64,000 bases of DNA from an uncultured Candidatus Saccharibacteria bacterium (lineage in GTDB: Bacteria; Patescibacteriota; Dojkabacteria; GCA-002793355), in NCBI GenBank assembly GCA_964525295.1, contig CAZGEO010000001.1, positions 9,671 to 73,670 of the forward strand, written 5' to 3'. The notes beneath the pieces are model-generated. The model had not been told where the DNA came from. It worked only from the letters and a program-made list of their open reading frames with translations, and ran no database searches. A program made the translations under genes and the position numbers. Shown one piece after another: positions 17,129 through 54,355 of the stretch (position 1 is the first letter of the stretch; every line of letters begins with the position of its first letter).

Positions 17129-17163
17129 TTCGCTCATTATAGCAAAAGTGCTAAAATGAAATA

Positions 17164-18974: not shown

Positions 18975-19047
18975 GGGCAGTTAGCTCAGCTGGTAGAGCA
19001 CGTCATTGACATTGACGTGGTCATAGGTTCGAGTCCTATACTGCCCA
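18975..19047 (+). tRNA. tRNA-Val (anticodon GAC)
   Basis: Cloverleaf by hand: acceptor GGGCAGT/ACTGCCC, D-arm GCTCAGCTGGTAGAGC, anticodon stem CGTCA/TGACG with loop TTGACAT, T-arm ATAGGTTCGAGTCCTAT, discriminator A. CCA is not encoded. Confidence 0.9.
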
Positions 19048-19048
19048 T

Positions 19049-19095
19049 GGGTGTTTGGCAATCTCGCAGAGGTTGGCAGACACCCATTTTGTTAC
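19049..19095 (+). terminator. Hairpin plus U-tract after tRNA-Val
   Basis: GGGTGT...ACACCC stem followed by ATTTTGTT. Confidence 0.4.
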
Positions 19096-19128
19096 ATAGG
19101 CGATGAACCCAATATTACGAAGTAAGAT

Positions 19129-19182
19129 TGAAGGTTCGAGTCCTATTCCGAGTTTACGAGGAATATGGAATATACTGCCCCT
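19129..19182 (+). repeat. Interrupted duplicate of the tRNA-Val 3' end (pseudo-att remnant)
   Basis: aggttcgagtcctat matches the tRNA T-arm exactly (15/15). After a ~25-bp insertion comes atatactgccc, repeating the acceptor 3' strand. A third copy tatactgccca lies at 19282-19292. Confidence 0.7.
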
Positions 19183-19446
19183 ATTTTTATAACGAAGTGG
19201 CAACAGTACTTTTGAATACACTTATAATGTCGAGAACCTATGCTGCGAAGCAGTAATAGGTAAGAGGCCTAAAGCATAGCTTTACAAAGTATACTGCCCA
19301 TTCAATATCAGTCTCATAGCTTCCCTGAATTATGACATCAATACCCTAAACCAATAACTTTTAGTACTTCAGCACATTAATAATTTATCGCTCTACTGCT
19401 TTAATGCTTTATTTTTCCCGAGTTCCTGTAGTTGATTTCAATACTA

Positions 19447-37868: not shown

Positions 37869-38232
37869 AAAAGCATAAGGATTTGGAAACAGGCGACTAA
37901 ACAATGTGGCAGAAAACTGCAACATTCATAGTCATTCCCGACCTGTTTCAGCGGAGTTAGCTTCCAGAAATAATCCACACAACGATACAGACAGTAACGC
38001 ATCCCATTGTTGAGATAATGAATACTGTAGTAAAGGTGCGAATTTTTTTTGGAATTAGTTTCTCCAAAGGATTCATCTTTGAATCCTCCTTTCTGGCTTA
38101 TGCCAAAAGTTTTCAAGTTCTTTCGAACATTGACAAAGAATTATATCCTATAGTTAACTGTCCTGTCAAGATGAATTGCTTTGAGAACACTGATTTCACC
38201 GGACTATTTCAGAGTTAGAATACCACGCCCAC

Positions 38233-39117
38233 TCACCGAATATTATGCTTTACAATAAATGCAACAGCCATCCAAACCAATGCACTTAAGATTCCGATTG
38301 CGCCTCCAATAAATGGATGATAGCTCGTTAATATCAATATAAAAACTCCAGCAAACGCATTAAACATTCCATGTAGCGCACCTGCAAAAAGCACATTCTT
38401 TGTTTTATCGGCAATTACGCCAAAGGCAAACGAGAACCCGATGCAAAAAAGAATAAACGCAAAAACGCCTGGAATAGCTAGTGAAGTACCATAATTATAT
38501 CCCTGAATAATAATTGGCGCATGCCATATCCCCCAAATCGCACCAATAAGAAGATTTCGCTTAACAAACGGTAAATGCGCGAATTCCTGCATTAGATATC
38601 CTCTCCATGAAATCTCTTCACCTAACGCAAAGAGAAGATTTATAGTGAATCCTGCAATAATTGCTGAAACGAAAGACATTATGACTAGAAAAATTGGCCC
38701 AAATGGAACATTAGCGCTTCCTCCCGAGCTACCGTTCAACGACGAAATATGACGTGCCAGTGATTCTGTGTCTGTAATTAACGTACCAAAATATGAAGGA
38801 AATATTTTACCAAGCAAAAACGTTACTCCTAGAAGTAAAATTGCCCATGTAATGAACATTCCAATTGTAAGAAAGAAATTCTTAAGCGTTAAGCCTGATT
38901 TATCAAAAAATTTGTTAACTGCATATGATTCCTTCGACAATGATTGATTAATCATGTATGCATACAAAGGCGCAGGCATGTACATAAATGCCAAAATCAT
39001 TCCCATAATTCCACCTTTCATTGGATCGGCAGGTAAAGTACTTATGTAGTAATAAAAAGTGGCTGCAAGAATTGTAATAATTGCTAAAATTATGAAATAT
39101 CGTGTAATTTTCTTCAT
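38233..39117 (-). CDS. CPBP-family intramembrane glutamic endopeptidase (CAAX protease / Abi)
   Basis: Motifs EEISWRGYL (EExxxR), FALGEE and IWGIWH within a polytopic membrane protein. The start was moved to the internal MKKITRY. Confidence 0.75.
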   Translation of the reverse strand: MKKITRYFIILAIITILAATFYYYISTLPADPMKGGIMGMILAFMYMPAPLYAYMINQSLSKESYAVNKFFDKSGLTLKNFFLTIGMFITWAILLLGVTFLLGKIFPSYFGTLITDTESLARHISSLNGSSGGSANVPFGPIFLVIMSFVSAIIAGFTINLLFALGEEISWRGYLMQEFAHLPFVKRNLLIGAIWGIWHAPIIIQGYNYGTSLAIPGVFAFILFCIGFSFAFGVIADKTKNVLFAGALHGMFNAFAGVFILILTSYHPFIGGAIGILSALVWMAVAFIVKHNIR

Positions 39118-39190
39118 AGTAGAGAATAATGTTTTTTCGCATTTTTTGCAAGGAACTGCTATAATTACGTATAAAACGTGAGTCAATTAA

Positions 39191-39505
39191 ATGAATTCCG
39201 AAACGCCACAACCGAAAAAGCCTTTTCCATACCGTTGGTTACTCATATTTTTTGGATTTTCAATACTTTCTGATATTGCCAAACCTGTTTACAAACTTGT
39301 AAAGAATAGTGGGTTTATGTACACAGATCAATTGTTCTATGGCATTCTTATTGCAATTGTTGTCGTATTGCTGATTTTCAAAATTCGTAAGCGTATTCAG
39401 TTGGCGAAACAAGAAAAGCTCATAAATATGATTGATCAAGCGATTTACGAAGAATCAAAAGCTGGGCAAGAAGAAAAAGCAGCAAAAGGAAGGAGCGTGG
39501 AGTAA
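39191..39505 (+). CDS. Small membrane protein
   Basis: 104 aa with two TM helices. Confidence 0.4.
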   Translation: MNSETPQPKKPFPYRWLLIFFGFSILSDIAKPVYKLVKNSGFMYTDQLFYGILIAIVVVLLIFKIRKRIQLAKQEKLINMIDQAIYEESKAGQEEKAAKGRSVE

Positions 39506-39522
39506 GTTGTTCCCTATAGAAA

Positions 39523-39963
39523 ATGCAAGATACTGGTGGCCTTCAAAATACAATAAAAATTAGTGTTGGAATCCTTGTATTCAAGGATGAATCTATACTT
39601 TTTGGCAGATCACGAGACTCAACTGGAGTAATCAAATATTGTCTTCCAGTTGGACATCTAGAATTTCTTGAATCATTTACTGACTGTGCCAAGAGAGAAA
39701 TTCTCGAAGAATGTGGAATAGAGATAGAGAATATTAGATTTCAATTCCTCTCAAATACCAAACATTATAAGCCAAAACACTACGTCCATATCGGATTAAT
39801 AGCGAATTGGAAATCAGGCGAACCGCAAGTCTTAGAGAAGGGAAGTATCGAAGCTTGGGAATGGCGAACTAGAAATGACCTGCCTGAATCTCTTACAACA
39901 GGTGCAAAACTTACACTCAACGCGCTAGATGAGAAACGATTGATGTACGAAGACTTAAGCTGA
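39523..39963 (+). CDS. NUDIX hydrolase
   Basis: Nudix box GHLEFLESFTDCAKREILEECGIE. Confidence 0.75.
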   Translation: MQDTGGLQNTIKISVGILVFKDESILFGRSRDSTGVIKYCLPVGHLEFLESFTDCAKREILEECGIEIENIRFQFLSNTKHYKPKHYVHIGLIANWKSGEPQVLEKGSIEAWEWRTRNDLPESLTTGAKLTLNALDEKRLMYEDLS

Positions 39964-39988
39964 AATCACCCAAAAATCAATTGAAGAA

Positions 39989-42781
39989 TTACGATCGACT
40001 ATTCATCCTGTACTTATTTCCAACATACAAGGAAATTATACATATAATTATCACAATAAACCATAACCACATATAATTAATCCTTTCACTGTTCGTTTCA
40101 TTTCGGATATCATTAATAATAATTTCATTCACTTTAAGGTTTCTATCAAATTCAAATTCTCCTGTAATGTTGTTGATTATATAGCTAAACTTACCCGAGC
40201 CCCAATGCTGGACAAAAATATATCCCTCTCCATTGGTAGTATAGTACATGTTATTAATTTGAATCTTTGCATCTACAATAGGATTGCCATCGCTATTCTT
40301 AATTAAAATGGCAAAAACTTCTTCCTCGCGATATTCATTATTTCTAATTTCTTCTGTAACTTGTTCTTGCTTGTTATTCTGGTCGAGATCTTGAATACTC
40401 TGACCTTCATCTACAACGAGCTTATAGAGCCACTCTGGAAAATATTCTTCACCAACAATTAATGTTAGTGTTCGTATCGCAGATTGGTTACCAGCTGCAT
40501 CGGTACTAGAATAGGTAATAATATTTTTACCCCTAGCAAGTTTTGGGTTGTTTAAAAGAATTCTAAAGAATCCTGCATTATCAGAGTTCGTAACGTATAG
40601 AACTTCCCCAACTACAAATTTCACTACCGCATTTGCTTCAGTTATCCCCTCAATCATCGGAGTTTGAGAGGTGAAATAGTAAGATAAATTTGCACTATCT
40701 GGCAAATTAGATATTAATCCTAATTTGGTGAGTTTAATTCCAGGTACAGTTTTATCTAAAACTATACTAGCAGAAGAAACTTCCGAGAAATTCGTATATA
40801 AATCTTCATACTTAATATACACAGTCTTTGTTCCATTGCCATCCGAGAGGATAAATTCAGTTGTTTGACTGTATGGTTGCCATGTCGCTCCAGAAAAGCT
40901 TGGGTTTTCTGAAATCATCATTTGTTTGACTGAAGAGAGCGCATCTGACGCCGCAGTTGAAAGCGTAACATTTGAATTGTTTGTGACGATAGCTCCTGAA
41001 TTAATAGCTATGCTTCCAACAGGAATTTCTCGATCATGACGATAAACACGAATACGATCTGCATAACGATCTAAAATATAAATACTACCATCGCTAGCAA
41101 TAGCAAGTGAACTTGGAATGTGAAACTCTGCTATCGAACCCCACACATACAGAAAGTTACCATACTTATCAAACACCTGTATTCTTGAGTTATTAGTATC
41201 TGCTACCCAAATATTATCATCAGCATCACTTGCAACAGAATTTGGCGTATTGAATTGACCAAGCTCTGTTCCTCGTGTACCAAATTTAAATAAGAATTCT
41301 CCAAACTCAGTAAATACCTGAACTCTATGATTAAGTTCATCCGCGACTATAACTCTATTTTGGTTATCAACATCTATACCCCAAGGTCGATTAAATTGTC
41401 CATCGGCAGAACCACTACTTCCAAACTTATATAAAAAATTCCCTTCGAGATCAAACACTTGAACCCGATAGTTTTGATCTTCGATTAAAAATATTTTATT
41501 GTTTTTGATTGCTAGATCTGCTGGATTTTTGAACTGACCATTTTCACTTCCATAAGCACCGAATTTTGATATGAAAGCACCATTTTTATTAAATCTTTGA
41601 ATTCGACTATTTCCAAGATCAATCACATAGATATCACCATTGGCGGGATTAGTTGCAACCCCTACAGGTGTATTCAACTGACCATCACCTGATCCATACC
41701 CACCCAAGACAAGTACCGGGCTATCATTACTATTGTAAATTAATATTCTATGATTGTCGGTATCGACCGCATATACTGTGTTATTTTCATCTACATGAAC
41801 TCTAAGAGCGCCATTAAGCGAATTATCTCTAATAACTGGAATGTTGTTACCGATAAGTAAAATTTGGACATTTGAAGGATTAAATTTATGAATTTGTGCA
41901 TATCTTGATGCGGCAACGTATAAATTACCAGCTGAATCAATCGATGAGCTTAATGGCCCGGCAACACCAGTAACTTTACTTATATAACTTCCAGTTATCG
42001 TAAGTTTCTGGACTCTATTATTACTAATTTCAGATACATAAATATTCCCTAACGAATCAATATTTAGGTCAACCGGTCCGTTGAATTGGCCATCTCCACT
42101 CCCAGTCGAACCGAACTTGGAAAGAAAATTTCCAGCTAAATCAAAAACTTGTACTCTATTATTCGTTCTGTCGGCTACATAGATTTTACTATCAAACACT
42201 TTTATCCCTGTAGGGTAGATAAATTGACCGTCTCCACTCCCAGACTCACCAAAACTCAGTATATATTCACCATTCAAATCTCGAACAAATATTGATGTAT
42301 TCGCGTAATCTGAAATATACATCTTTCCGTCGGAGATCGAAAACCTTATTGGATCTCCTGGGGCTCCATTTATTTTTGTATGATATACAGTTGAAATATA
42401 CTTACCCTGTGTATCGTATTTATAAATTGCTGAATTATGCTTATCAAGTACATAATAATGATCATTGTAATATGAAATGCCACGAATATCACACAGAAAA
42501 TCTATGCTTTGTTGATCAGGAGTATCAAAGACAAATAAAAAATTACCATTACTGTCAAATTTTTGTACATTCCATTGAGCGATATCTGCTGTAACAAAAT
42601 TATCATTTTCAACAACAGTAATACTAGATAAGTATGCAAATATTCCATTACCTCTATTAGATACAATCGTTTTTTGGTAAAGAGGAATATCATTTTGAGT
42701 CCAAGCATCTACTTTATTTGATAAACTAAAGTAACAAATTACTCCTAGAAACAAACTAAAGATTAGAAGCCGTCTGCGCAA
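39989..42781 (-). CDS. Large NHL-repeat beta-propeller surface protein (930 aa) with C-terminal TM anchor
   Basis: Signal peptide, then at least 12 NHL-type repeats (NNRVQVFD, NHRVQVF, NSRIQVFD, SGDGQF...), and a C-terminal hydrophobic helix YMWLWFIVIIICIISLYV. Confidence 0.8.
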   Translation of the reverse strand: MRRRLLIFSLFLGVICYFSLSNKVDAWTQNDIPLYQKTIVSNRGNGIFAYLSSITVVENDNFVTADIAQWNVQKFDSNGNFLFVFDTPDQQSIDFLCDIRGISYYNDHYYVLDKHNSAIYKYDTQGKYISTVYHTKINGAPGDPIRFSISDGKMYISDYANTSIFVRDLNGEYILSFGESGSGDGQFIYPTGIKVFDSKIYVADRTNNRVQVFDLAGNFLSKFGSTGSGDGQFNGPVDLNIDSLGNIYVSEISNNRVQKLTITGSYISKVTGVAGPLSSSIDSAGNLYVAASRYAQIHKFNPSNVQILLIGNNIPVIRDNSLNGALRVHVDENNTVYAVDTDNHRILIYNSNDSPVLVLGGYGSGDGQLNTPVGVATNPANGDIYVIDLGNSRIQRFNKNGAFISKFGAYGSENGQFKNPADLAIKNNKIFLIEDQNYRVQVFDLEGNFLYKFGSSGSADGQFNRPWGIDVDNQNRVIVADELNHRVQVFTEFGEFLFKFGTRGTELGQFNTPNSVASDADDNIWVADTNNSRIQVFDKYGNFLYVWGSIAEFHIPSSLAIASDGSIYILDRYADRIRVYRHDREIPVGSIAINSGAIVTNNSNVTLSTAASDALSSVKQMMISENPSFSGATWQPYSQTTEFILSDGNGTKTVYIKYEDLYTNFSEVSSASIVLDKTVPGIKLTKLGLISNLPDSANLSYYFTSQTPMIEGITEANAVVKFVVGEVLYVTNSDNAGFFRILLNNPKLARGKNIITYSSTDAAGNQSAIRTLTLIVGEEYFPEWLYKLVVDEGQSIQDLDQNNKQEQVTEEIRNNEYREEEVFAILIKNSDGNPIVDAKIQINNMYYTTNGEGYIFVQHWGSGKFSYIINNITGEFEFDRNLKVNEIIINDIRNETNSERINYMWLWFIVIIICIISLYVGNKYRMNSRS

Positions 42782-42953
42782 GATCTGATTTCATTCAAAT
42801 AATTCAAATATATACTAGCATGGGGGAATATCGATGTCCAATTATTCACTCAATATTAGTTGCTTAGGTATAATTCCTGGCGATATTTCCAAATATTGAA
42901 AATCAGGTTCTTTTTTGATTTTGCTTTGTACCTACACTAAAGAGTAAACGCAA

Positions 42954-43083
42954 GAGCGGGTGACGAGATTTGTATTCGAACTTCGTCTTCAGTATCAATT
43001 CGATCTACAACTCACCCTCACATTCATTCCACTCATTGGATCTCATTGTCGAACTTTCGTTCTCATCTCGTACATAGCAAAAG
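42954..43083. repeat. R1 repeat copy A: degenerate tRNA-Gly 3'-end fragment plus conserved 33-bp core
   Basis: gcgggtgacgagattt matches the 3' end of the tRNA-Gly at 52227. The core cattgtcgaactttcgttctcatctcgtacata (43044-43076) is identical to 51272-51304. Confidence 0.7.
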
Positions 43084-43149
43084 TGGAATGATAATGAGAT
43101 AGTCTCTCATTACATGTATAATAATTCAGGTTACTAAATATTAAAAACG

Positions 43150-43572
43150 ATGATAGATTTGAGTACTGCTCGAAAAAAAATGGATTTAGCATTAAAAGTC
43201 ATTACAGTACAGTTGTTACGCGATTCTGGTTTTAAAGGTAAATATCCACACTTTTATAGAATAAAAAAGGAAAGTATTGAATTGTTAAGTTTTCAATTTA
43301 ATAAATGGGGAGGGAGCTTTGTTGTTGAAATATCATATACTGACAACCAACATAAAAACTTATACTCTTACACTAATAAACTACCTTCAGAGCTACGCGT
43401 TTCTCAAACTATTGAACGACTAAGACTCGGTCCAAAAGTAAAAGGGGATTATTGGTTTAGGTTCGACAACATAAACTTGCTATTTTGGAATAACAAATAT
43501 AATGCGATTGCTGAAAAAGTTAATTATTATATTACAACAGAGGCAGAGACTTGGTGGGAGAATAAATCTTAA
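43150..43572 (+). CDS. Hypothetical protein
   Basis: 140-aa ORF between repeat copies A and B. Confidence 0.4.
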   Translation: MIDLSTARKKMDLALKVITVQLLRDSGFKGKYPHFYRIKKESIELLSFQFNKWGGSFVVEISYTDNQHKNLYSYTNKLPSELRVSQTIERLRLGPKVKGDYWFRFDNINLLFWNNKYNAIAEKVNYYITTEAETWWENKS

Positions 43573-43680
43573 CTTACTTGTATTGTCCGAACCACAATAA
43601 TTTTGTCTCTCAATTCCTGATGTGCTCGTTTTATTGTTATTTCTAAGACTATCAAGTGTTTTTGTACATCGTTTGCGATA

Positions 43681-43737
43681 TATCGTCTAAGATGTATATG
43701 AGCGGGGCACTAGATGAAGTCCGAACCGCACTTAGTA
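43681..43737. repeat. Repeat copy B: duplicate of the tRNA-Gly downstream flank (R3) plus R2 module
   Basis: tatcgtctaagatgtatatgagcggg matches tatcgtctacgatgtatataagcggg at 52207. agcggggcactagatgaagtccgaaccgcacttagta matches 51351-51387. Confidence 0.7.
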
Positions 43738-44005
43738 CAGGTGCCTCACTTTTCATCGATAATTTTAATACTCTTAACTAATTTTGATTATAATATAAAC
43801 ATGAAATTTACGCATGGGAAAAGTGGAATGATTACGAGATCATCTTCATTTAACTGGATTAGTTGGTTGGTCTCTTTTGCCTTTTTACCAATTAATTTTT
43901 TACTTATACTATTGGGTATTTGCCTACACTTAAAAAAGTAATTATTCTAAAAAACACATAAATAGTGGGTAGTACGTATTATGGCTACCCACTATGCTTT
44001 TAACG

Positions 44006-44563
44006 CTACTTAAATAACGAAGTTACACTTTCTAATTCGCTTACACCTATGACAACATTGCTCCCATTAACCTTTTCGTTTGCATTAATTGGGTATGGGT
44101 TGCAGTCTGGTTTTTCAATAGCAAAATCTTCAACAGAATAACTCTTTTCACAAACTGTACAAATAAGTTTGTTTCCTTCTTGCACATAACCTTTCCCATA
44201 CTTTGCACACTGTTTATTTCCATTAGCTGCAACTCTAAATTTACCTTCAGCATCTTTTAAGACCATAAAATAGACTGTTGTTCCATCAGGTAAAGTTGCA
44301 TTAAAGAACTTTACTTTGTTCACCTCAAATCCAACAGTAGGGATCGAAACATTTCCATCAACCACTTGAAGCGTCTCACCCTTATTTCCTGTAAATACAT
44401 ACGCTTCAGTTTCTTCTGCTGTATTTGTTGGCGTTGCATTTGATGTTGGCTGAGCTTGGATTGTTAAATTGTCAGACTTTGGCTTATTATTCAATGAATA
44501 GAAAACTAAACCACCAACAACAATTGCTACAATGATCAAACCTCCTAATACTTCTTTTTTCAT
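44006..44563 (-). CDS. Membrane-anchored Cys-motif protein, possible metal-binding
   Basis: N-terminal TM, a Thr/Pro-rich linker, and the C-terminal Cys pattern CAKYGKGY...CTVCEKSY...C. It is the last gene of the copper operon. Confidence 0.45.
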   Translation of the reverse strand: MKKEVLGGLIIVAIVVGGLVFYSLNNKPKSDNLTIQAQPTSNATPTNTAEETEAYVFTGNKGETLQVVDGNVSIPTVGFEVNKVKFFNATLPDGTTVYFMVLKDAEGKFRVAANGNKQCAKYGKGYVQEGNKLICTVCEKSYSVEDFAIEKPDCNPYPINANEKVNGSNVVIGVSELESVTSLFK

Positions 44564-44582
44564 ACATTAATTATTTAAGAAA

Positions 44583-46895
44583 TTAAATCTTTACAAACTT
44601 CAATCTTAGTGAATTTGTAACAACTGAAACACTACTAAATGCCATTGCTAAACCTGCAAATACTGGATTTAATAGAATTCCCCAAATTGGAAAGAGTAAT
44701 CCAGCCGCTAACGGAATACCAACAACATTGTAGATAAATGCCCAAAAGAGATTCTGTTTGATTGTAGCCATTGTTTTCTTTGACAACTTGATAGCTTGTG
44801 GAATCTTTGAAATATCTCCTGCAAGTAATGTTATATCTGCGGATTCAATTGCAACATCCGTACCTGTTCCCATCGCAATTCCTACGTCAGATTGAGCAAG
44901 TGCAGGTGCATCATTTACACCGTCTCCTGCCATTGCAACTACTAAACCTTCTGCTTGTAATTCACGAACCTTGTCTGCTTTTTCACTTGGCAATACTTCT
45001 GCAAAGACTTTATCAATGCCAACCAAATCTGCTATGTATTTAGCCGTATTTCGATTATCACCTGTAAGCATTACGACTTTAACACCAAGCTTATGTAATC
45101 TTGCAACTGCATCGGCACTTGATTCTTTAATTGTGTCTGAAATTGCAATTGTTGCTAAAACCTCTTTGTCATCAGTGAAGAGTACTGGCGTTTTGCCTTG
45201 TTTCGACAATTTATCAATTAGATCCTTATCGTAATCAAGCTTTAAATCGTCCATAAGTTTCAGATTTCCTGCAAAGTACATCTTTCCATCAATAGTACCT
45301 TTCAATCCTTTACCTTCAATGATCTCGAAATCATCAACTTTTACAAGTTGAACATCCATAGATTTTGCCTTTTCCTTGATTGCCTCAGCTAATGGATGCT
45401 CCGAGTTCTTTTCTAAAGAAGCTATTAATTTTAGTATTTCAACTCCATCAATAGACTCATTTGCATATGAAGGAAGGATATCTGTAACTTCAGGCTTACC
45501 TTTTGTAATTGTTCCTGTTTTGTCAACAACAATGGTATTAACTTTGTGTAACTTTTCTAAGCTTTCAGCATTTTTAATGAGAATACCGTTTTGAGCTCCT
45601 TTACCAACACCAACAATGATTGCTGTAGGAGTAGCAAGTCCTAAAGCACATGGACAAGCAATCACCAAAATCCCAACAAAGCAGAGTAATCCGTAAGTAA
45701 GTGCTTCATTAAATGGCATAAATTGACTTCCAACTGCCAACCATATTATCAACGTTAAAACAGCAATGACAAGCACAACCGGAACAAATACTCCTGAAAT
45801 TTGATCTGCTAACTTTTGTATTGGTGCTCGTGATCCTTGTGCTTCTTCTACCATTTTAATAATACTTGCTAAAAGAGTATCTGAACCAACTTTCGTAGCA
45901 TTAAACTTGAATGTACCTTGCTTATTTATTGTTCCTCCAATAACTTTGTCTTCAACTGTTTTATCAACTGGAATTGGCTCGCCAGTTACCATAGATTCAT
46001 CAATTGAAGATTTACCTTCGATAATAACACCATCTACAGGAATTTTACCTCCTGGTTTAACAATGACAACATCGTCAAGTTGCACCATATCAATTGCTAT
46101 TTCAATTTCTTCTCCATTTCTTTCAACTAATGCTGTCTTTGCTTGAAGATTCATTAACTTTTCTATTGCTTCTCCTGTTTTGAGCTTTGATCGTGCTTCT
46201 AGATATTTACCGAAGACAATAAAGCCAATAACAACGATTGCGACATCAAAGTAATTTGTTTCAGGAAGTCCTGCTGAATGTGCAATATTAGGGAATAAAA
46301 CAACAAATGAACTATAGAGATATGCCGTTAATGTACCAATTCCAATCAAAGTGTCCATATTGGCAACTTTATATTGAATAAAGTTTACTATGCCCTTTAA
46401 AAAAGGTTGTCCAATCCAAAACAGCACTACGGAAGAAATAATCATCATCATTGTAGAGTACAGTTGCATTGGGAGAAAGAATGCTGGAACGACATTTGGG
46501 AATGATTTTGCACTAATTTCCCACATCATTAATACAAAGATCATCAATGCAATCGGGAGGACAAATTCAACTTCAGATTTTTGTTTATCCAACTCCTTAA
46601 GTTTTTCTTGCTTGCTTTTATCAAGTCCTAAGTGTTCTGCATGTTCATTTGCTGACATATTTCCATGACTCATTGGCATTGCAACTTCATTTTGCAATTC
46701 ATAGCCAAATGGTTTTATTCTTTCGCTCATTTGGTCTATTGATGTTGCAGTTTTATCAAACTCAATAGTAGCTTTCTCTGTGCCATAATTCACTTTAATT
46801 GAGTCAACTCCATTTACTTTGGAAATTGCTTTCTCAATGGTTAATGCACAACTTGCACAGTGCATTCCCTTAATAGGTATTGTTATTTTTTCCAT
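44583..46895 (-). CDS. copA: Copper-translocating P1B-type ATPase
   Basis: N-terminal [17 protein letters not shown], the CPC motif in [18 protein letters not shown] and [10 protein letters not shown]. Confidence 0.92.
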
Positions 46896-46919
46896 TGTTT
46901 TTATATGATAGTAGGTTAA

Positions 46920-47480
46920 TTATTTGACTTCGTACCAATCAGTTCTCATTTGACTTAATTTGATCTTACCTTTGTGTAAGAAGTCTTCGACTGCGTTTGC
47001 ATTGTTCAAGATTTCATTTCTTGTTGATTTTTTTTGAATCTCCATAGTCATTTCAATTCCTGATTCGTGATGGGTAATGAGTGCATTTAAAAATCTCCAA
47101 TCCAACTTTTCATCATACGTACCTAAATTTGGAACTTCCATTGAAGCGACTTCTTTTGTATCGTTATACCAATCCTTCTTCCATTGATATAATTCAGCAA
47201 TTGCTTTTGGTTCATCTGTTAAGATCATATTTGCAAGATCTTTAATATCCTGTCTCCGAGATTCATTTTTAACCTGTTCTGCTAGTTTCATTGCACCTTT
47301 ATGATGTGCAATCATGGCATTTATGTATCGTAAATCAACATATTTATCTGCTTTACCTAAATCTACCATTTGTTTGCTTTCGTATTGATCCATTGAATAC
47401 TGGGGTGACACGACATAGCCGAGACCAGTTCCAAGTACAAAGAAAATAATGACGAGCGAAATTGTTATATATTTTGACAT
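46920..47480 (-). CDS. DUF305-family protein (copper-resistance associated)
   Basis: N-terminal TM and two repeats carrying HH motifs (MIAHHKGAM and LITHHESGI). Confidence 0.7.
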   Translation of the reverse strand: MSKYITISLVIIFFVLGTGLGYVVSPQYSMDQYESKQMVDLGKADKYVDLRYINAMIAHHKGAMKLAEQVKNESRRQDIKDLANMILTDEPKAIAELYQWKKDWYNDTKEVASMEVPNLGTYDEKLDWRFLNALITHHESGIEMTMEIQKKSTRNEILNNANAVEDFLHKGKIKLSQMRTDWYEVK

Positions 47481-47498
47481 AGTTATTTGAAGTAAAAA

Positions 47499-47723
47499 TT
47501 AAGCAATAATGTTAAGATTAGAGTATTTATAGTCTGTTAACTCTTTAAATACTTCTTGAAGATCTTTTTCAACTTCCTCAGTATTTTTAGAAGTCACAAA
47601 GGTAGCAACATTTTTTTCAGAATCAACAGAAACTTCTTCTAGCCCAATATCTTCTAATGACATGGTTATTAAGTTTTTGCATCCTGAACAGTGCATTCCT
47701 GAAATATCTATTTGGTATTTCAT
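47499..47723 (-). CDS. copZ: Copper chaperone (HMA domain, CopZ-like)
   Basis: 74 aa with GMHCSGC. Confidence 0.85.
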   Translation of the reverse strand: MKYQIDISGMHCSGCKNLITMSLEDIGLEEVSVDSEKNVATFVTSKNTEEVEKDLQEVFKELTDYKYSNLNIIA

Positions 47724-47732
47724 ATTTAAATA

Positions 47733-48155
47733 TTAATTAAAATTAATTACAAAACTATACATTCCCATACTACAAGAACCTCTTAAGCTGGTACCTGCAT
47801 TTTGAGAAGTAATTTCAATATCAGTATTACCACTTGCAGGTAATGTCTTTGAAATTCCTAAACTTAGGATTCTAAATGCTCTTTCGCAACCGTAAACACC
47901 ATCTGATTTCATACGAATAATTGTTGGAACACCTGCTTTGGCGTTAATTGTACGAGGTGAATAGCCACCACTAACTGTAACTTCAATAATTTGTTTATCT
48001 CCTGAAGTGCTGACGACATTTGAACTTGCACCTTTTACATCAGCTGAACGATTATTCCCAGAACCAACGAGAAAGACAAATCCAATCATAACAATTACGG
48101 CAATTCCAATCAATAAACCTTTACCGTCAACAGTTATAGTTCTAACTTCTTGCAT
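47733..48155 (-). CDS. Membrane-anchored His-less cupredoxin-like domain protein
   Basis: N-terminal TM followed by SGGYSPRTI...GC...SCSMGMY, paralogous to the C-terminal domain of the upstream HMA-permease (SGYSPNTI...GC...SCWMGMV). It resembles the cupredoxin_1 YyC..pgH..GMkG pattern with the His segment deleted. Confidence 0.5.
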   Translation of the reverse strand: MQEVRTITVDGKGLLIGIAVIVMIGFVFLVGSGNNRSADVKGASSNVVSTSGDKQIIEVTVSGGYSPRTINAKAGVPTIIRMKSDGVYGCERAFRILSLGISKTLPASGNTDIEITSQNAGTSLRGSCSMGMYSFVINFN

Positions 48156-48193
48156 ATACGTGGTTTGTTTTAATATTATATATTTCCAAAACT

Positions 48194-49660
48194 TTATTCC
48201 ACAACCTCAATAATTCCAGTTACCATTCCCATCCAACAGCTAAATCTATATTTCCCGACTTTTGTTGGAGTAAACTCTTTAACTGCTACTTTTCCAGTTT
48301 CAAGATCTATCTGACCATCAAAAAGACCTTTTGAGATAATGGCATTTGTACAGCCTGAAGTCCCAGTATCATTAATTTCCCATCGAACAGGGACATTCAC
48401 TCTTACTTTGATAGTATTAGGTGAGTAACCTGAAGCACTTGCCTCCATTTTTACAATTTGTTTTCCATTAACAATTTCGGGAAGAGTGCTATTTGAAGAT
48501 CCAGTGTTATTACTCTGGTTTACGCTGCTTTGTCCAAAACTAATGTCATTTAAATTTGGTAGTCCGAGTGCAATAAGTTGCATGTTGACTGTTGATAGTC
48601 CAAAGAGTATGACGAGAATACCAACTAACTTCATGAAATTTTCAGCAACATGTGCTTTTTCATACATCTTTGTGCTAGACATTCCAATGAATAAAAGCAT
48701 GGGAGAAGTTCCTAATGCAAACAATGACATTATTAAAGCTCCACGAATAGGATCTCCTGATACCATGGCTAACCCCTGAGCTGTAATGGTGAATCCACAA
48801 GGAAGAAAGAATGTAAGTGCCCCCATAATCATAGGCATGTATTTGCCTGCAAAATTTGATTCATCAGCAATATACCTTGAAAATACTTTTGGCATTCTAA
48901 ATTGAAATCTTTGAAAAGCCTTAATACCAAGCATTTGTAAACCTAACAACACCATCATAATTGAAACGAGAATTGCGACAAGAGCCGTAAATAATGGAGA
49001 AATGGTAAATATACTTCCAATTGCACCTAAAACACCTCCAAGTATTGCGAATGAAACAATTCTTCCGATGTTAAACAATAGATGTGGTTGTAATTTCTCT
49101 GAAAAAGAATTACTTGTTGAATGTAACTCATACCACTGCTTTGACATTGACAAAACAATTCCCCCAACAAGAGCCGCACAACTCGAAAACCCTGCTACAA
49201 TGCCAAAAAAGAAAAACGCAGGTAAGGCAGAGGTTGCATTAACAGAGACAGCAGAAGCTAAACCAAATCGTTCAAATAGTTTATAGATTAAGAAAATACC
49301 TGCAACTCCAATTATAATAAAAAGGATTGAGTTGATTTTGCGTGTGCTAAAAGTTAACTTACCATTTTCAATTTGAAACAATTTTTCAACATCCTCTTGA
49401 ACTTGGTCTTCAGTGCCAGTTTCGTCAAAGCTATATCCTTCAGTTTTAAACAATTTATTCAATAGTTCTAAAGTGGGCTTCTCTCCTTTATATTCTATTT
49501 TTACCTTGTTGTCTGAAGTAGAAGCATCTACACCTTCAATGTTATTTTGTTTTATAAGTTTTTTTTCAATGAGGACTTCACAACTTGCACAATGCATTCC
49601 CTTTACTGAGTAACTGCATTCTTTTAGTTGAGGCTCTGATTTTTTCGATTTACTTTTCAT
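48194..49660 (-). CDS. HMA-domain::polytopic permease (TauE/SafE- or CcdA-like, paired Cys)::cupredoxin-like domain fusion protein
   Basis: N-terminal GMHCASCEVLIEKKL, a membrane core with AGFSSCAALVGG and FFLPCGFT, and a C-terminal FSCWMGMVTGIIEVVE module. Confidence 0.6.
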   Translation of the reverse strand: MKSKSKKSEPQLKECSYSVKGMHCASCEVLIEKKLIKQNNIEGVDASTSDNKVKIEYKGEKPTLELLNKLFKTEGYSFDETGTEDQVQEDVEKLFQIENGKLTFSTRKINSILFIIIGVAGIFLIYKLFERFGLASAVSVNATSALPAFFFFGIVAGFSSCAALVGGIVLSMSKQWYELHSTSNSFSEKLQPHLLFNIGRIVSFAILGGVLGAIGSIFTISPLFTALVAILVSIMMVLLGLQMLGIKAFQRFQFRMPKVFSRYIADESNFAGKYMPMIMGALTFFLPCGFTITAQGLAMVSGDPIRGALIMSLFALGTSPMLLFIGMSSTKMYEKAHVAENFMKLVGILVILFGLSTVNMQLIALGLPNLNDISFGQSSVNQSNNTGSSNSTLPEIVNGKQIVKMEASASGYSPNTIKVRVNVPVRWEINDTGTSGCTNAIISKGLFDGQIDLETGKVAVKEFTPTKVGKYRFSCWMGMVTGIIEVVE

Positions 49661-49680
49661 TCATAGTTCATAACAAATTA

Positions 49681-49702
49681 GGCTACTACAAGTGTAGTAG
49701 CC
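49681..49702. promoter_or_regulatory. Cop box operator: perfect 22-bp palindrome containing TACAAGTGTA
   Basis: GGCTACTACAAGTGTAGTAGCC overlaps a predicted minus-strand promoter (-35 TTGACA at 49714-49719, -10 TACACT at 49691-49696). It lies about 21 bp upstream of the HMA-permease start. Confidence 0.7.
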
Positions 49703-49731
49703 TAACGATTAAATGTCAAGTATTTTTGGAA

Positions 49732-50685
49732 TTAATTTGATGGACAAGAAGTTGGAGTGTCCATAGAATGCACAGAGCACAGATTTTCTGAAGAATTACT
49801 TTGGAGATTATTAACAAATATTTGAATACAATCTTCGATATGTTCACAGTTATAAAATTTCACCGTATATACGAAAACAGGTAAGCTGACCAAGGCAAAC
49901 AAAAAGAATGATGATAAAGTAGTAACTAGTTTAAAGTTAAATTTCTTTGCTCCAACTAATACAGGTATTCTTTCGGGCATATTACTAAAATGTGCTAAAT
50001 TTGGTTGCATGGTCATGGAAAAGTCATTACTCAGAATCGAGTATAAGGCTTCAATAATAGGTCTTTTCTTTCCTAATATGTTTTCTGAGTGTTCATCACT
50101 TTTTAATTCAACAGATGTGAAGTAAATATCTTTCAGCTTGTTCTTAAAAGGAAACTGAGGAAGTATATTATTAATGAGTTGTACAATAAATCCTCTCAAA
50201 GGATCATGATCTTTGCAATGCGAAAATTCATGATGCAAAACCGCCTTCAACTGTTCAGAAGTTAATGAACTCTTTAGTTTTGAGGAAATATATACTTTCG
50301 GTGTAAAGAATCCTGCTGTAAAGACAGAAGTTTCCTTCGAATCTAAAGTGATAACAGCTTTATTAGACTTACTGTTTAAAGAATTCAAAAACTTTTGGGA
50401 GAAAAATAATTGTTTAAGTGAGACTAAAATTCCCTTTAATGCAATAAATAATAGACTCAATGAAAGTAATCCAAATAGGACAGATTGAATAAAAGCTTCA
50501 CTAAAAATAATTGAAGTAATTTCAGAACGATTTTTTATAACTCCGTCTATAAGAAAGAGTGTTTGCATAAAAAATCCTGGTAAAGCTCGTACAGAGAGAA
50601 GGGTTAATAGAGTAACGTAGGCAAAACTAGAAATAACATAAATTGCAAAAAGACGATTTGTTTGGCTACTATAAATTTTATTCAT
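49732..50685 (-). CDS. M56-family (BlaR1-like) membrane metalloprotease lacking a penicillin-sensor domain
   Basis: Four N-terminal TM helices and HEFSHCKDHD (HExxH). It is 317 aa, whereas BlaR1 is about 585 aa. It overlaps the upstream repressor gene by 8 bp. Confidence 0.7.
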   Translation of the reverse strand: MNKIYSSQTNRLFAIYVISSFAYVTLLTLLSVRALPGFFMQTLFLIDGVIKNRSEITSIIFSEAFIQSVLFGLLSLSLLFIALKGILVSLKQLFFSQKFLNSLNSKSNKAVITLDSKETSVFTAGFFTPKVYISSKLKSSLTSEQLKAVLHHEFSHCKDHDPLRGFIVQLINNILPQFPFKNKLKDIYFTSVELKSDEHSENILGKKRPIIEALYSILSNDFSMTMQPNLAHFSNMPERIPVLVGAKKFNFKLVTTLSSFFLFALVSLPVFVYTVKFYNCEHIEDCIQIFVNNLQSNSSENLCSVHSMDTPTSCPSN

Positions 50686-51043
50686 TTTTATTTAAAAAGT
50701 CTTTGAGAAGTTTAGCATTTTTGCTATCACTTTTCACAGAGTCAATAAACTGCGAAATTGCTAACTCTCCATATGTATCTACCAACGAATTAAAAATTCC
50801 ACCTAAATGTTTACCAGCAAATTCTTCCTTACACTCAGTATATGTATATACATACGAATTACCGTCTGGAATTCTTTTAAGAATACCTTTTTTCTCCATT
50901 CTAGTCATTACAGTCATTACGGTGGTGTATGCTGACTTTTCTTTTAACTGTTCGAGTACAGACCTAACATTCATGGGCTCTTTTGAAGCCCAAATGATTG
51001 ATAATATTTCTTGTTCGAGGTCACCAAGCACTAAAGATTTCAT
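50678..51043 (-). CDS. copY: BlaI/MecI/CopY-family winged-helix transcriptional repressor
   Basis: LGDLEQEILSIIWASKEPMNVRSVLEQL...YTTVMTVMTRMEKKGIL matches the penicillinase-repressor family. The start was moved to MKSLV because the operator lies inside the longer ORF. It has no C-terminal CxCxxxxCxC. Confidence 0.75.
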   Translation of the reverse strand: MKSLVLGDLEQEILSIIWASKEPMNVRSVLEQLKEKSAYTTVMTVMTRMEKKGILKRIPDGNSYVYTYTECKEEFAGKHLGGIFNSLVDTYGELAISQFIDSVKSDSKNAKLLKDFLNKNE

Positions 51044-51068
51044 ATTTTTAATCACTATAAAACAACTA

Positions 51069-51080
51069 CTACAAGTGTAG
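51069..51080. promoter_or_regulatory. Cop box operator (CTACAAGTGTAG palindrome) upstream of the repressor gene
   Basis: Shares the TACAAGTGTA core with the 49681 palindrome. It lies about 26 bp upstream of the repressor ATG. Confidence 0.65.
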
Positions 51081-51190
51081 CACAAAATTGGAGCTATGCC
51101 AATTATTGACACAATAAAAATATGGGAAGATATATATCAGGCGATTTATAAAGATAATTCGAATACTTCATTATCGTAAACGATATATAT

Positions 51191-51387
51191 GAGCGGGCGA
51201 CGAGATTTACCCACAGGGCATCAATTCAGTTTACGAATCACTTCCTCAATACTTCGTCGTTCTTCGGACTTCATTGTCGAACTTTCGTTCTCATCTCGTA
51301 CATAACAAAAGAGGGCTGCTATCCACCTTTCAGGTGAACACCAGCCCTCAAGCGGGGCACTGGAGGAAGTCCGAACCGCACTTAGTA
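51191..51387. repeat. Repeat copy C: 15-nt copy of the tRNA-Gly 3' end, then R1 with 33-bp core, then R2 module
   Basis: gagcgggcgacgagatt matches tRNA-Gly 3' end plus flank. Core at 51272-51304, and R2 agcggggcactggaggaagtccgaaccgcacttagta at 51351-51387. Confidence 0.7.
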
Positions 51388-51445
51388 ATGGTACACTTAT
51401 TTATACAAAAGATCGGTACTTTCCACAATTTAATTTAAAGTAAAG

Positions 51446-52054
51446 TTAATCTATCCAATTTGGGTTCGATGTTATGTAGTTTGAAAAAATGTGTGAATAC
51501 GTCTCTGAGTCGTATTCTTTTCTAAACTTGTCAATTATAGTAGTTAATTCTTGTTTAAAAAATGCGGGACTTATTAGCACCTGCCAATCCCCTTGTTCAA
51601 GCAATGTATTTAGGATTTCTTTATAAGTACCGGAAATATTACTTTCTTTATGAGTTTCTAATTTACCTGAGTCAATAGACCAAAACTGGTAGTGGTTAAT
51701 AAATCTTGCTTCATAGGAAGTAAGAAACCAATTTTTTGACTTCTGATTATCAGAAAATGAGGTTGTAAATTCTCTATACGTCCATAGAAAACCATATTTG
51801 AAGTCTTCTGCAGTTAATATACTTTCCTTAAATGAAGGTATTCCCCAAGATTCACAATTTTCTATAAAAATATCATTTCCATCCTTACCATTACACTGAT
51901 CTTCGATAAACTGAGCTCTTTTTTTTGCTGAATCATAAGGTAAAGACCTTAAATATTCAGTAATCTTGAGATATTTTGCAAGAGTATCAGTATGCTTAAC
52001 GGTTCTCGATTCCAATAAATCTTCAATTTCGGGGATTGTACTTAAATCTAACAT
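51446..52054 (-). CDS. Hypothetical protein
   Basis: 202-aa ORF between repeat copy C and tRNA-Gly. Confidence 0.4.
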   Translation of the reverse strand: MLDLSTIPEIEDLLESRTVKHTDTLAKYLKITEYLRSLPYDSAKKRAQFIEDQCNGKDGNDIFIENCESWGIPSFKESILTAEDFKYGFLWTYREFTTSFSDNQKSKNWFLTSYEARFINHYQFWSIDSGKLETHKESNISGTYKEILNTLLEQGDWQVLISPAFFKQELTTIIDKFRKEYDSETYSHIFSNYITSNPNWID

Positions 52055-52226
52055 TCATATTTCAGTTTAAATTGATATTCTATTTTACACTTTACAAAGA
52101 TATTTGGGAAATTGAATGAAAAACAATAGAGAAATAGTTGTCAAGTATTAAAAAGAGAACTATTGTTAATTGTGACTTTTTAAAAGAAATTTATTGTCTG
52201 AGATATATCGTCTACGATGTATATAA

Positions 52227-52299
52227 GCGGGCGACGAGATTCGAACTCGCGATCTTCTGTTTGGAAAACAGACATTCTAGCCGCTGAACTACGCCCGCA
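52227..52299 (-). tRNA. tRNA-Gly (anticodon UCC)
   Basis: Minus-strand cloverleaf: acceptor GCGGGCG/CGCCCGC, anticodon stem TCTGT/ACAGA with loop TTTCCAA, T-arm GCGAGTTCGAATCTCGT, discriminator U. Confidence 0.88.
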
Positions 52300-53182: not shown

Positions 53183-54355
53183 TTAATCGTTCGAATGATC
53201 TACCTCGGGATACGTATTCATTTCTTCAAAAGTCATCTCTCCCGAAGTGAGAGTGAATGCAATTTGATTAATTGACTGAGCTAAGGCGTCAAATGACTGT
53301 ACCTGTTCATCAGTAAAATTACCTGATTTCATATTATCGAGCGATTGTTCCGTTATTAACTGCTTAAACATTCGCTTAACGTCTTGAAATAGCGAACCCT
53401 GAAAAGTAACCTCATATGCATCGAGATCACTATTTAGATGTAGATTCCCTTGTGCAAAACTGCAAGCAAGTTTGTCATCACCAATTTCTAGGCTTTTCAA
53501 AACAAACACAGCCTTGACTCCCGATGCATCTGGAAAATTAACGTGACGTTTTCCAACTGCAATTGGCAATTCTCGCCACACCATACTCGCAGATTGATAA
53601 TTCACTATTGCTTTTTCTTTATTAGTGCAAAACAACGTAGCCTGATCTGCTTCGCGACGTGCATTTGAGATAGTCCCACCCAGTAAAACGCTAATATTAA
53701 GTAATGTTCCTGATCGTGAGTATTCAGCAGCCGTTTTTAACTGTTTATCGTAAAGTAATGATTTGCCAGTTGCTGCATCAAAAGTGAAAATTCTTGAAAC
53801 AGATAATCCAAACTCAGTTTGCTGAAATGTCTCAATTTTTACGTTATAACCAAACTTTTCTCGATGATAATCAATTGTCATTCGATATGGTGCAGTTGCA
53901 ATTTCTCCTGATTCCAAAATTTCATAAGAATTTGATTGTGGAATTCTTAACAGTTGCAGCCTCGAGTCATCAGAGCTGACATTAGCAAATGGTAATTTAT
54001 GTTCAATTGCATTCAGACAGGCGTTTGCAGTTCGTACTCTTTCAATATTAAGTGAAGCTGTGCCTCGTTCAATCCAATCTAGAAATTTTTTTGAAAAAGA
54101 AACTCCAAATTTTTCACCATGTTGCTTAAATGGGACTGCATCTGCTGGCAAATTTGGACTTGTTCCCGCCATGAGTAATTTTACTCTTTTATATCCTATA
54201 AGTAAATATACTTCAATGAAGTGGTCGTTATACAACATTTCATATAACCGTTGAGTTTCATTGCTGCATAGTCTATAATATCGGAGCTCGAGAGTATTGT
54301 GCACGAGCGCCAGGTAGTTTACTAACTGGAATATTTTTTGCGCAATACAAAACAT
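53183..54355 (-). CDS. Hypothetical protein
   Basis: 390-aa ORF. The true start is probably internal (for example MAGTSP near 54172), because the annotated start lies 19 bp from the divergent rpmG start. Confidence 0.4.
   Translation of the reverse strand: MFCIAQKIFQLVNYLALVHNTLELRYYRLCSNETQRLYEMLYNDHFIEVYLLIGYKRVKLLMAGTSPNLPADAVPFKQHGEKFGVSFSKKFLDWIERGTASLNIERVRTANACLNAIEHKLPFANVSSDDSRLQLLRIPQSNSYEILESGEIATAPYRMTIDYHREKFGYNVKIETFQQTEFGLSVSRIFTFDAATGKSLLYDKQLKTAAEYSRSGTLLNISVLLGGTISNARREADQATLFCTNKEKAIVNYQSASMVWRELPIAVGKRHVNFPDASGVKAVFVLKSLEIGDDKLACSFAQGNLHLNSDLDAYEVTFQGSLFQDVKRMFKQLITEQSLDNMKSGNFTDEQVQSFDALAQSINQIAFTLTSGEMTFEEMNTYPEVDHSND

Follow-up and report, generated by a model that had tools for sequence, protein, structure and literature searches.

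The window analysed here is a 64-kb stretch (64,000 nucleotides) of the genome of an uncultured Candidatus Saccharibacteria bacterium that GTDB places in the Dojkabacteria (assembly GCA_964525295.1, contig CAZGEO010000001.1, positions 9,671 to 73,670 of the forward strand). Behind a tRNA-Gly(UCC) gene it carries a row of inserted genes, among them an eight-gene copper operon. We read this region as a chromosomal array of discrete, recombinase-less gene cassettes, for which the 3′ end of tRNA-Gly is the anchor and which would be mobilised in trans and inserted site-specifically 3′ of a sequence ending ...YCGCT; we put the probability of this reading at roughly 55%. Several observations carry it: the cassette boundaries can be placed to the base, the same two end sequences (F on the left, X on the right) recur on unrelated cargo, occupancy of the sites differs between genomes, some sites are empty, and no recognisable recombinase lies nearby.

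Cassettes and their ends behind tRNA-Gly

The anchor of the array is an intact tRNA-Gly(UCC) on the minus strand at 52226-52298 (ARAGORN; Rfam tRNA, 69.2 bits); the original prediction had the gene and strand right and the coordinates one base off (52227-52299). Its final 16 nt, AATCTCGTCGCCCGCT (site T, 52226-52241, minus strand), have three matches in the window against 0.02 expected. A copy of the tRNA end had been proposed at 51191-51207 and is found at 51192-51207 (T′, 16 of 16 nt identical), and the degenerate copy proposed at 42954-42985 is likewise present, as T″ at 42955-42970 (15 of 16), with the remaining T arm, carrying a 5-nt insertion, extending the similarity over 42955-42985. 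The 23 nt that flank the tRNA on its 3′ side, ATATACATCGTAGACGATATATC (motif F), recur at 43677-43699, where no second copy is expected by chance, and a weaker copy (F2) directly follows T′. The segment 43681-43706 had been taken for this flank plus 5 nt of tRNA; the flank is indeed there (F3), but what remains belongs to another repeat, X2, whose final 6 nt these are, and is no piece of the tRNA. Three repeat pairs had been overlooked: X1/X2 (51351-51392 and 43701-43742; 42 nt, 90% identical), Y1/Y2 (whose 33-nt cores, 51271-51303 and 43043-43075, are identical) and Z1/Z2 (43813-43845 and 43073-43105), none of which occurs again anywhere in the window. The repeats of the tRNA 3′ end are thus joined by others, and they are genuine and non-random. 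Rfam, searched at its gathering cut-off and at E ≤ 10, matched nothing in the array besides the tRNA, so the repeats are not a known RNA family.

Read along the minus strand, on which all features below lie unless stated otherwise, the array has the order tRNA-Gly (...CGCCCGCT); F1-ORF202-X1; U1 (hairpin-Y1-T′); F2-copper operon-Z1-70-nt spacer-X2; F3-ORF140 (reversed) with U2 (Z2/Y2-T″); flank. The first cassette (51351-52225, 875 nt) consists of F1 (52193-52225), the open reading frame (ORF) of 202 aa called ORF202 (51446-52054) and X1 (51351-51395, conserved core 51351-51379). It is followed by the 159-nt, ORF-less unit U1 (51192-51350), which opens with a terminator-like hairpin (51311-51350) and closes with T′, a copy that begins in the T loop. 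The original prediction had let a segment of about 1 kb run from the tRNA to T′, whereas the real bounds of the ORF202 insertion are the tRNA end and X1, and U1 is not part of it. ORF202 itself has no relative in Pfam, PHROG, NCBIfam or PDB, and its AlphaFold model is not usable (predicted local distance difference test, pLDDT, 42).

The copper cassette (43701-51191, 7491 nt) runs from F2 (51159-51191) to X2 (43701-43745), with a cop box, TACAAGTGTA, at about 51070-51090 upstream of the repressor gene, and with Z1 (43813-43845) and the 70-nt spacer before X2. According to Pfam its eight genes encode a CopY/BlaI-like repressor, an M56/M48 peptidase, a DsbD_2+HMA+cupredoxin protein, a cupredoxin, an HMA protein (chaperone), a DUF305 protein, the P-type ATPase CopA and an FtrD-like protein. 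An island of about 7.5 kb bracketed by repeats had been predicted here; that it is an insertion stands, and its bounds are corrected to T′ and X2. The ORF140 cassette (43126-43700) begins with F3 (43668-43700) and carries ORF140, a DUF4304 protein (Pfam) encoded on the plus strand at 43150-43572 and hence reversed within the cassette; in the window it is without a spacer-X right end of its own. It abuts the ORF-less unit U2 (42955-43125), which contains Z2 (43073-43105, a hairpin with a T-run) and ends in T″, its T-arm remnant reaching to 42985. The notion of at least three successive insertions at a single attachment (att) site thus survives as separate insertions stacked at tRNA-Gly-type sites, with other segment bounds.

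The left ends of the cassettes, which range from 0.9 to 7.7 kb, follow the pattern (CCA/yATA)TACATCGTAGACGAT-AT-ATCGCAAACGAT, that is, two tandem 12-bp palindromic ATCGnnnnCGAT boxes joined by AT. Downstream of these boxes lies a promoter-like region, and then any cargo. The right end X has a near-invariant 29-nt core, GCGGTTCGGACTTCCTCCAGTGCCCCGCT, which terminates in CCCGCT like the tRNA acceptor strand; across cassettes the consensus can be written GCGGTTCGRACTTCCTCCARTGCCCCGCT, and in some of them a Z hairpin and an AT-rich spacer precede it. Conservation extends over 35 to at least 130 nt at the left ends and over 45-145 nt at the right ends. We tabulated the junctions of the window and of six further loci (L030, L091, L093, L095, L096 and L097), together with the left junction of L089, whose contig ends before the right one. 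Every left junction has the form ...YCGCT / (CCA/yATA)TACATCGTAGACGAT..., and all X-type right ends, including those of the ORF202 and copper cassettes in the window, read ...CAGTGCCCCGCT and then pass into unrelated sequence, often beginning with CCA. The cassettes appear to carry their own promoters, as judged from conserved TTGACA-type sequences in the left ends alone; a scan for promoters and terminators did not rise above the shuffled expectation.

We also considered whether X is a decayed 3′ half of tRNA-Gly. The alignment (made with X1) was not clearly better than those of shuffled sequences (p = 0.02-0.11), and this origin was rejected; CCCGCT alone is securely shared, and X2 and the tRNA have just these final 6 nt in common.

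A side observation concerns the Y core (51271-51303 and 43043-43075), which is 100% identical between its copies despite diverged surroundings. It can be read as a 10-codon ORF, MYEMRTKVRQ and a stop, and holds a GAAC-GAAA-GTTC hairpin; the units of L011 and L088 contain motifs related to it (GATGAGAAC..GTTCG).

Recurrence, empty sites and older units

For comparison we retrieved 87 related loci; these and the further loci examined are referred to here by L numbers, and the contigs with cassettes come from several sources (Logan, ENA, JGI and GTDB metagenome-assembled genomes). The cassettes of the window recur in other genomes as units. The ORF202 unit, F-ORF202-X, is present in L093 (99.4% identical over the 875-nt unit) and in L091 (98.3%), each time with different flanks. 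In L093 it sits behind another tRNA-Gly-like end (...GCGAGGTGACC GAGTCCCGTCTCTCGCT; ...GTCCCGTCTCTCGCT) and before a different hairpin unit; in L091 it lies directly behind the X of the copper cassette, where the window has F3-ORF140, and after its X come a hairpin and then a U unit, which has AATCTCGTCGCCCGCT as its end. A more distant homologue (84%) with an F-type left end is found in L089, after a short unit behind another tRNA-Gly, one that adjoins rplS. The ORF140 unit recurs in L095 at 97.8% identity with X on both sides, in the order X, F-type left end, ORF140 (reversed), Z, spacer, X. In L097 the whole copper cassette, from an F-type left end to Z-spacer-X, is directly behind a tRNA-Gly(GCC) that adjoins tRNA-Phe, and its BLAST homology to the window spans 51107 to 43700, stopping exactly at the X end. 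At these other tRNA-Gly-like sites the ORF202 and ORF140 cassettes are 98-99% identical to those of the window, and the copper cassette about 80-84%.

The same ends also enclose other cargo. L096 has a cassette with a cupin and a 180-aa protein, with the same F and an X identical at 36 of 36 positions, behind another tRNA-Gly(GCC). L030 comes from a distant Dojkabacterium, whose neighbour protein is just 45-47% identical to that of the window; here rplS and tRNA-Gly(UCC) are followed by F, HD and HAD hydrolases and X, then by F, a class-I aminoacyl-tRNA synthetase (aaRS)-like gene and X, and then by flank, and the core of the second X matches that of the window at 29 of 29 positions. The cupin and 180-aa pair, or the 180-aa gene alone, was seen behind tRNA-Gly in three genomes (L005, 3787-4695; L091, 2200-2742; L096, 186-1082), and these genes form a clean F...X cassette in L096 only. 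The lack of a recognisable F or X around them in L005 suggests that cassette ends decay after fixation.

Assembly chimaeras, a concern with the Logan contigs, were ruled out as the source of these arrangements. The X/F1 junction k-mers of L091 and L093 are absent from the genome of the window, and L030, L095, L096 and L097 derive from GTDB genome, ENA and JGI records, that is, from other collections, whose differing contig naming suggests other assemblers. Scans of viral contigs for Y, X and F gave no match; a metagenome scan gave none for the end of U1 and a single contig, L096, for X.

Occupancy of the tRNA-Gly site itself differs between relatives. The 264-aa gene next to tRNA-Gly in the window has its homologues almost exclusively in Candidatus Dojkabacteria (WS6; Patescibacteria, or candidate phyla radiation, CPR), and in the close relatives L001-L014 such a homologue is followed by tRNA-Gly(UCC). 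An empty site, for which a search of related genomes had been proposed, exists in L001, where the tRNA is directly followed by the flank TTTATCCTTTAGC... In L002 and L003, which have the identical neighbour protein, a 152-bp insert ending in a 17-nt copy of the tRNA end comes first and then the L001-type flank, so that the site is polymorphic between strains; a similar 151-bp unit stands behind tRNA-Gly in L011. L088, the closest relative, whose neighbour gene shows 78% amino-acid identity, has the tRNA, a hairpin, a unit of about 235 nt and T′, and then a small ORF and a NUDIX gene; all three cargo segments of the window, about 8.3 kb in total, are absent there and are insertions relative to it. 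Because the last 61 nt of U1 are 96.7% identical to the end of the L088 unit, we take U1 to correspond to the unit after the tRNA in L088. L004 and L005, with an identical neighbour protein, carry entirely different cargo behind the tRNA.

The copper operon provides a measure of exchange between lineages. Its DNA is 86.5% identical to that of L004/L008, compared with 69-73% for the DNA of flanking core genes; its CopA protein is 95-96% identical to those of L097/L099, and ribosomal-operon proteins are 77-84% identical to those of L005/L008. Judged by this excess over ribosomal and core genes, the operon is a horizontally transferred one.

Beneath the cassettes lies what seems to be an older layer, the U units. 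These are short (about 85-235 nt), ORF-less, and begin with a terminator-like hairpin and end with a true copy of the upstream tRNA 3′ end that starts in the middle of the T loop; behind tRNA-Gly they are found in the window, L002, L011, L088 and L089. The copies serve as landing sites for cassettes, with T′ followed by F2 in the window, T′ by an F-type left end in L089 and the tRNA-Gly-like end by F in L093. U units are not confined to tRNA-Gly. On the plus strand of the window, a strong hairpin and a pair of short units come after tRNA-Val(GAC) (18975-19302 in all, units 19048-19302), with copies of its acceptor 3′ strand at 19173-19182 (ATACTGCCCC) and 19293-19302 (ATACTGCCCA) and a copy of its T arm at 19133-19146 (GGTTCGAGTCCTAT), which a 25-nt insert separates from the acceptor copy. 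The complete Dojkabacteria genome CP129477 (L014) has units behind tRNA-Arg(GCG), two in tandem (651-1021), and behind tRNA-Val(GAC) (16898-17178), which end in copies of the 3′ end of the respective tRNA; its second Arg unit and its Val unit have a common end, ...GCGAGGTGACC/GA, before the tRNA-specific sequence. That common end, also written ...AATGCGAGGTGACC/GA, is nearly identical to an end in L093 (GAAGCGAGGTGACC). The idea that the U units are a structured RNA was not adopted: folded as single sequences, they reach z scores of −0.9 to −5.6, mostly from the terminator-like hairpin, and their cross-genome alignment is too weak for covariation. They look like classical T-loop crossover footprints or miniature elements.

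It is with this layer that serial decay has to be weighed. The original prediction saw the small ORFs as possible remnants or cargo, for example immunity-like proteins, and one can suppose that integrase-bearing islands or prophages entered tRNA-Gly one after another, each losing its integrase and most of its content, so that inert remnants were left between displaced tRNA 3′ ends. The middle of the T loop, where the true copies T′ and T″ start, is the usual crossover place of tRNA-targeting tyrosine integrases. Such copies are also enriched downstream of tRNA genes: 114 tRNAs gave six same-strand downstream copies of their last 12 nt within 1.5 kb, against 0/0/0 in three control regions. Arrays of partial tRNAs from serial integration are described in Prochlorococcus islands (10.1101/2020.12.28.424599). 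Independent decay, however, would not yield identical, sharply bounded units, and at their different sites both the ORF202 and the copper cassette have kept the same F and X; some 12 cassette instances contain not even a fragment of an integrase, and their right ends are X, not tRNA copies. For the array as a whole we regard serial decay as unlikely, and it may be correct for the older U layer. The segments of the window are instead intact units with conserved ends that recur at other sites in other genomes, and the best reading of the cassettes is that they are not decayed integrase islands.

Proposed mobilisation in trans and known systems

If the cassettes move as units, the X/F junction of an excised, circular cassette would be joined to a site ending ...YCGCT(CCA) by a recombinase whose gene lies elsewhere, either in the genome or on a helper element. 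The circle of the ORF202 cassette, for instance, would have its X end, ...CCAGTGCCCCGCT, joined to its own F start, CATATACATCGTAGACG. Suitable targets would be the tRNA-Gly 3′ end, its displaced copies T′ and T″, and the X end of a resident cassette, with the U units as an older layer that supplies extra landing sites through their copies of the tRNA end. A crossover at or beside CGCT would leave the tRNA intact and allow cassettes to stack.

No such enzyme was recognised among the cassettes. The original prediction noted no integrase or recombinase in the array, and Pfam likewise finds none in its ORFs. No match to Phage_integrase, Resolvase or Recombinase was obtained in any cassette or neighbourhood ORF, annotations of the relatives' loci included, and Pfam found no integrase in the relatives' tRNA-Gly islands. 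The 33 other window ORFs of at least 130 aa gave 44 Pfam families, of which the 25 listed include no recombinase; nor was there one among the top 25 families for 85 ORFs near tRNAs in relatives, or in selected ORFs. An all-vs-all blastp comparison revealed no shared family of unknown function that could be a candidate recombinase, and the searched collections (viral, metagenome and genome) yielded no integrase-bearing relative.

One alternative dispenses with a recombinase of this type. An IS200/IS605-type enzyme working by single-strand "peel and paste", or another transposase acting in trans, could insert 3′ of CGCT without target duplication and end in the same motif. X-type cassettes do show no target-site duplication, always lie 3′ of CGCT and in one orientation, and their right end also terminates in CGCT. 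Yet neither the window nor any related locus has a match to a Y1_Tnp/HUH transposase, X/F and Z-spacer-X fold no better than shuffled sequences (z −0.1 to −1.7) and have no significant subterminal hairpins, and the restriction of targets to tRNA-Gly-like ends is not explicable by a 4-nt motif. We consider such transposition very improbable.

Several observations weigh against site-specific mobilisation in trans. The search for a recombinase in the source genome, which identified none, covered 64 kb of about 659 kb, and we saw no circular junction or excision product. The L093 contig, 1076 nt long with the ORF202 cassette and one U unit, has the same 21 nt (AGCGAGGTGACCGAGTCCCGT) at its two ends (1-21 and 1056-1076); this repeat is ambiguous, as either a tandem array or a circle excised as cassette plus U would show it. 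X and the tRNA ends share CGCT/CCCGCT alone, which is short for the overlap region of a classical tyrosine recombinase, and an attC-like mechanism is without support because the X/F junction shows no significant single-strand fold. The copper operon is also found without F, Z or X ends in L099/L100 and, on its left side, in L004/L008; since it occurs without recognisable cassette ends, the operon is older than, or separable from, its packaging as a cassette. Finally, shared sequence continues for 58 nt beyond X between L091 and the window, and the two left ends in L030 are identical for at least 130 nt, so homologous recombination could contribute to the shuffling of cassettes.

Homologous recombination could even account for the array without any dedicated recombinase, if DNA taken up by the cell were exchanged between conserved F and X/Z linkers, like the "minimal mobile elements" of naturally competent bacteria. 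The length of the conserved ends and the identity past X would suit such exchange, and genes of type IV pilus or competence type are present in the window (T2SSE and T2SSF matches). It may add to the shuffling but cannot produce the first insertions, which stand directly behind at least four different tRNA-Gly genes (UCC of type A, the type of the window; UCC of L030; GCC of L096 and of L097), where the left flanks share with X just ...CGCT, too little for RecA-type exchange; the junctions, moreover, are exact to the base. As an explanation of the whole array, exchange of this kind is in our judgement quite improbable, and we retain site-specific insertion by a recombinase acting in trans as the preferred reading.

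Elements of this picture are already known in general, namely tRNA-linked islands with partial-tRNA repeats and integrase-less elements mobilised in trans. One formal likeness is to integron arrays: compact, recombinase-less cassettes with unrelated cargo, each closed by a conserved site, stand in one orientation behind a fixed chromosomal anchor, and the same cassette takes different positions in different arrays. The array nevertheless does not qualify as an integron: the anchor is the 3′ end of tRNA-Gly and not an attI beside intI, with no integrase nearby; the X/F junction lacks the R″/L″-L′/R′ hairpin, GTTRRRY box and significant fold of attC, no GTTRRRY box being present at any cassette junction; and the cassettes seem to carry their own promoters and reach 7.7 kb.

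With tRNA islands, and the tycheposons of Prochlorococcus in particular, the array shares a streamlined genome, a variable tRNA-linked island with internal partial-tRNA repeats, adaptive cargo such as metal resistance, and the displacement of older insertions further in by newer ones. The putatively active, delimited tycheposons carry an integrase and many also replication genes (10.1101/2020.12.28.424599). The cassettes described here have neither and are closed on the right by X instead of a tRNA copy; the 3′ part of the tRNA does recur in direct orientation as T, T′ and T″, and the right ends X share just CCCGCT with the tRNA.

Cis-mobilisable elements (CIMEs) are flanked by att sites, lack recombination genes and depend on the recombinase of another element, and at a tRNA or another att site they accumulate in tandem with integrative and conjugative elements (ICEs) or integrative mobilisable elements (IMEs). 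The elements of our array have neither recombination nor transfer genes and bear conserved end sites, which are putative att sites. CIMEs, however, are usually one-off deletion derivatives of a particular ICE, whereas here a family of small cassettes with diverse cargo has the same two ends across distantly related genomes. The ssrA islands of Dehalococcoides have their own site-specific recombinase, unlike our cassettes, and are arranged in tandem, with the ssrA 3′ end repeated. PMC3146451 describes islands with adaptive cargo that integrate site-specifically at ssrA, a tmRNA gene present in one copy, and calls the mechanism common in Dehalococcoides. Adaptive cargo at a small-RNA gene is a trait shared with our array. 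Modules between dif sites, like integrative mobile elements exploiting Xer (IMEX), are recombinase-less, bounded by short conserved sites and moved by the host tyrosine recombinase, dif being a 28-bp site of 11-6-11 nt. The cassettes are likewise recombinase-less modules between short conserved sites, but these sites do not resemble the general 11-6-11 architecture of dif, with which they were compared, and it is the end of a tRNA that they occupy instead of dif or a plasmid.

Full-text literature searches returned no description of such arrays in Patescibacteria or Dojkabacteria. More tentatively, and at less than even odds, we suggest that the array may represent an undescribed, integron-like gene-capture platform of Dojkabacteria, and perhaps of other CPR bacteria, in which a recombinase encoded elsewhere, possibly of an unusual type, would recognise the 29-nt X and the double-palindrome F and carry cassettes of 0.9-7.7 kb with their promoters from one tRNA-Gly 3′ end or resident cassette end to another, in the same genome or a different one; for these minimal genomes this would be a main way of acquiring genes. 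To our knowledge, CPR/Patescibacteria have very small genomes in which recognised mobile elements are scarce, and how they gain adaptive genes such as those for metal resistance is a largely open matter. The locus offers a concrete system for this question, in which the target, ...YCGCT of tRNA-Gly, and the cassette ends, F and the X core of 29 nt, are defined to the base pair, with a cargo range that takes in copper resistance, a cupin, hydrolases, an aaRS-like gene and orphan ORFs; it can be searched for in any metagenome and is directly testable. A dedicated recombinase, if found, would make this a new cassette-capture system and a possible tool for site-specific integration, and even if a helper element is the answer, the data show flexible, integron-like arrays being kept at tRNA genes by small-genome bacteria.

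Surroundings of the array

Two clearly different tRNA-Gly(UCC) genes occupy the same syntenic position in this group, type A (...GCGAGTTCGAATCTCGTCGCCCGCT) in the window and L001-L008 and type B (...GCGGGTTCGAGTCCCGTTTCCCGCT) in L009, L010 and L013. The difference suggests, from the sequences compared, that the tRNA gene or its 3′ part has been replaced at the hotspot. Beyond the array, a block consisting of a 104-aa ORF, a NUDIX gene and a convergent NHL-repeat gene (37870-42954 in the window, 1476-2765 in L088) is inverted relative to the tRNA when the window is set against L088. Measured against L001, the variable region behind tRNA-Gly reaches to about 37870 (about 14 kb), past the limit of 42954 given in the original prediction.

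Upstream of tRNA-Gly lie the 264-aa gene, whose product has a weak lytic-transglycosylase-like match, and a 390-aa orphan ORF (53183-54355, minus strand), which has rpmG/tRNA-Trp on its other side and is thereby separated from the array by a single gene. The orphan has no match in Pfam, PHROG, NCBIfam or PDB, nor is any recombinase motif obvious in it; because it is absent at the same position in L088, L001 and L004, we regard it as a genome-specific insertion. Outside the array, positions 1-28000 of the window encode, according to Pfam, a RuBisCO large-subunit homologue, type IV pilus/type II secretion system (T2SS) ATPase and platform proteins and a ZIP transporter, typical CPR content without a link to the array.

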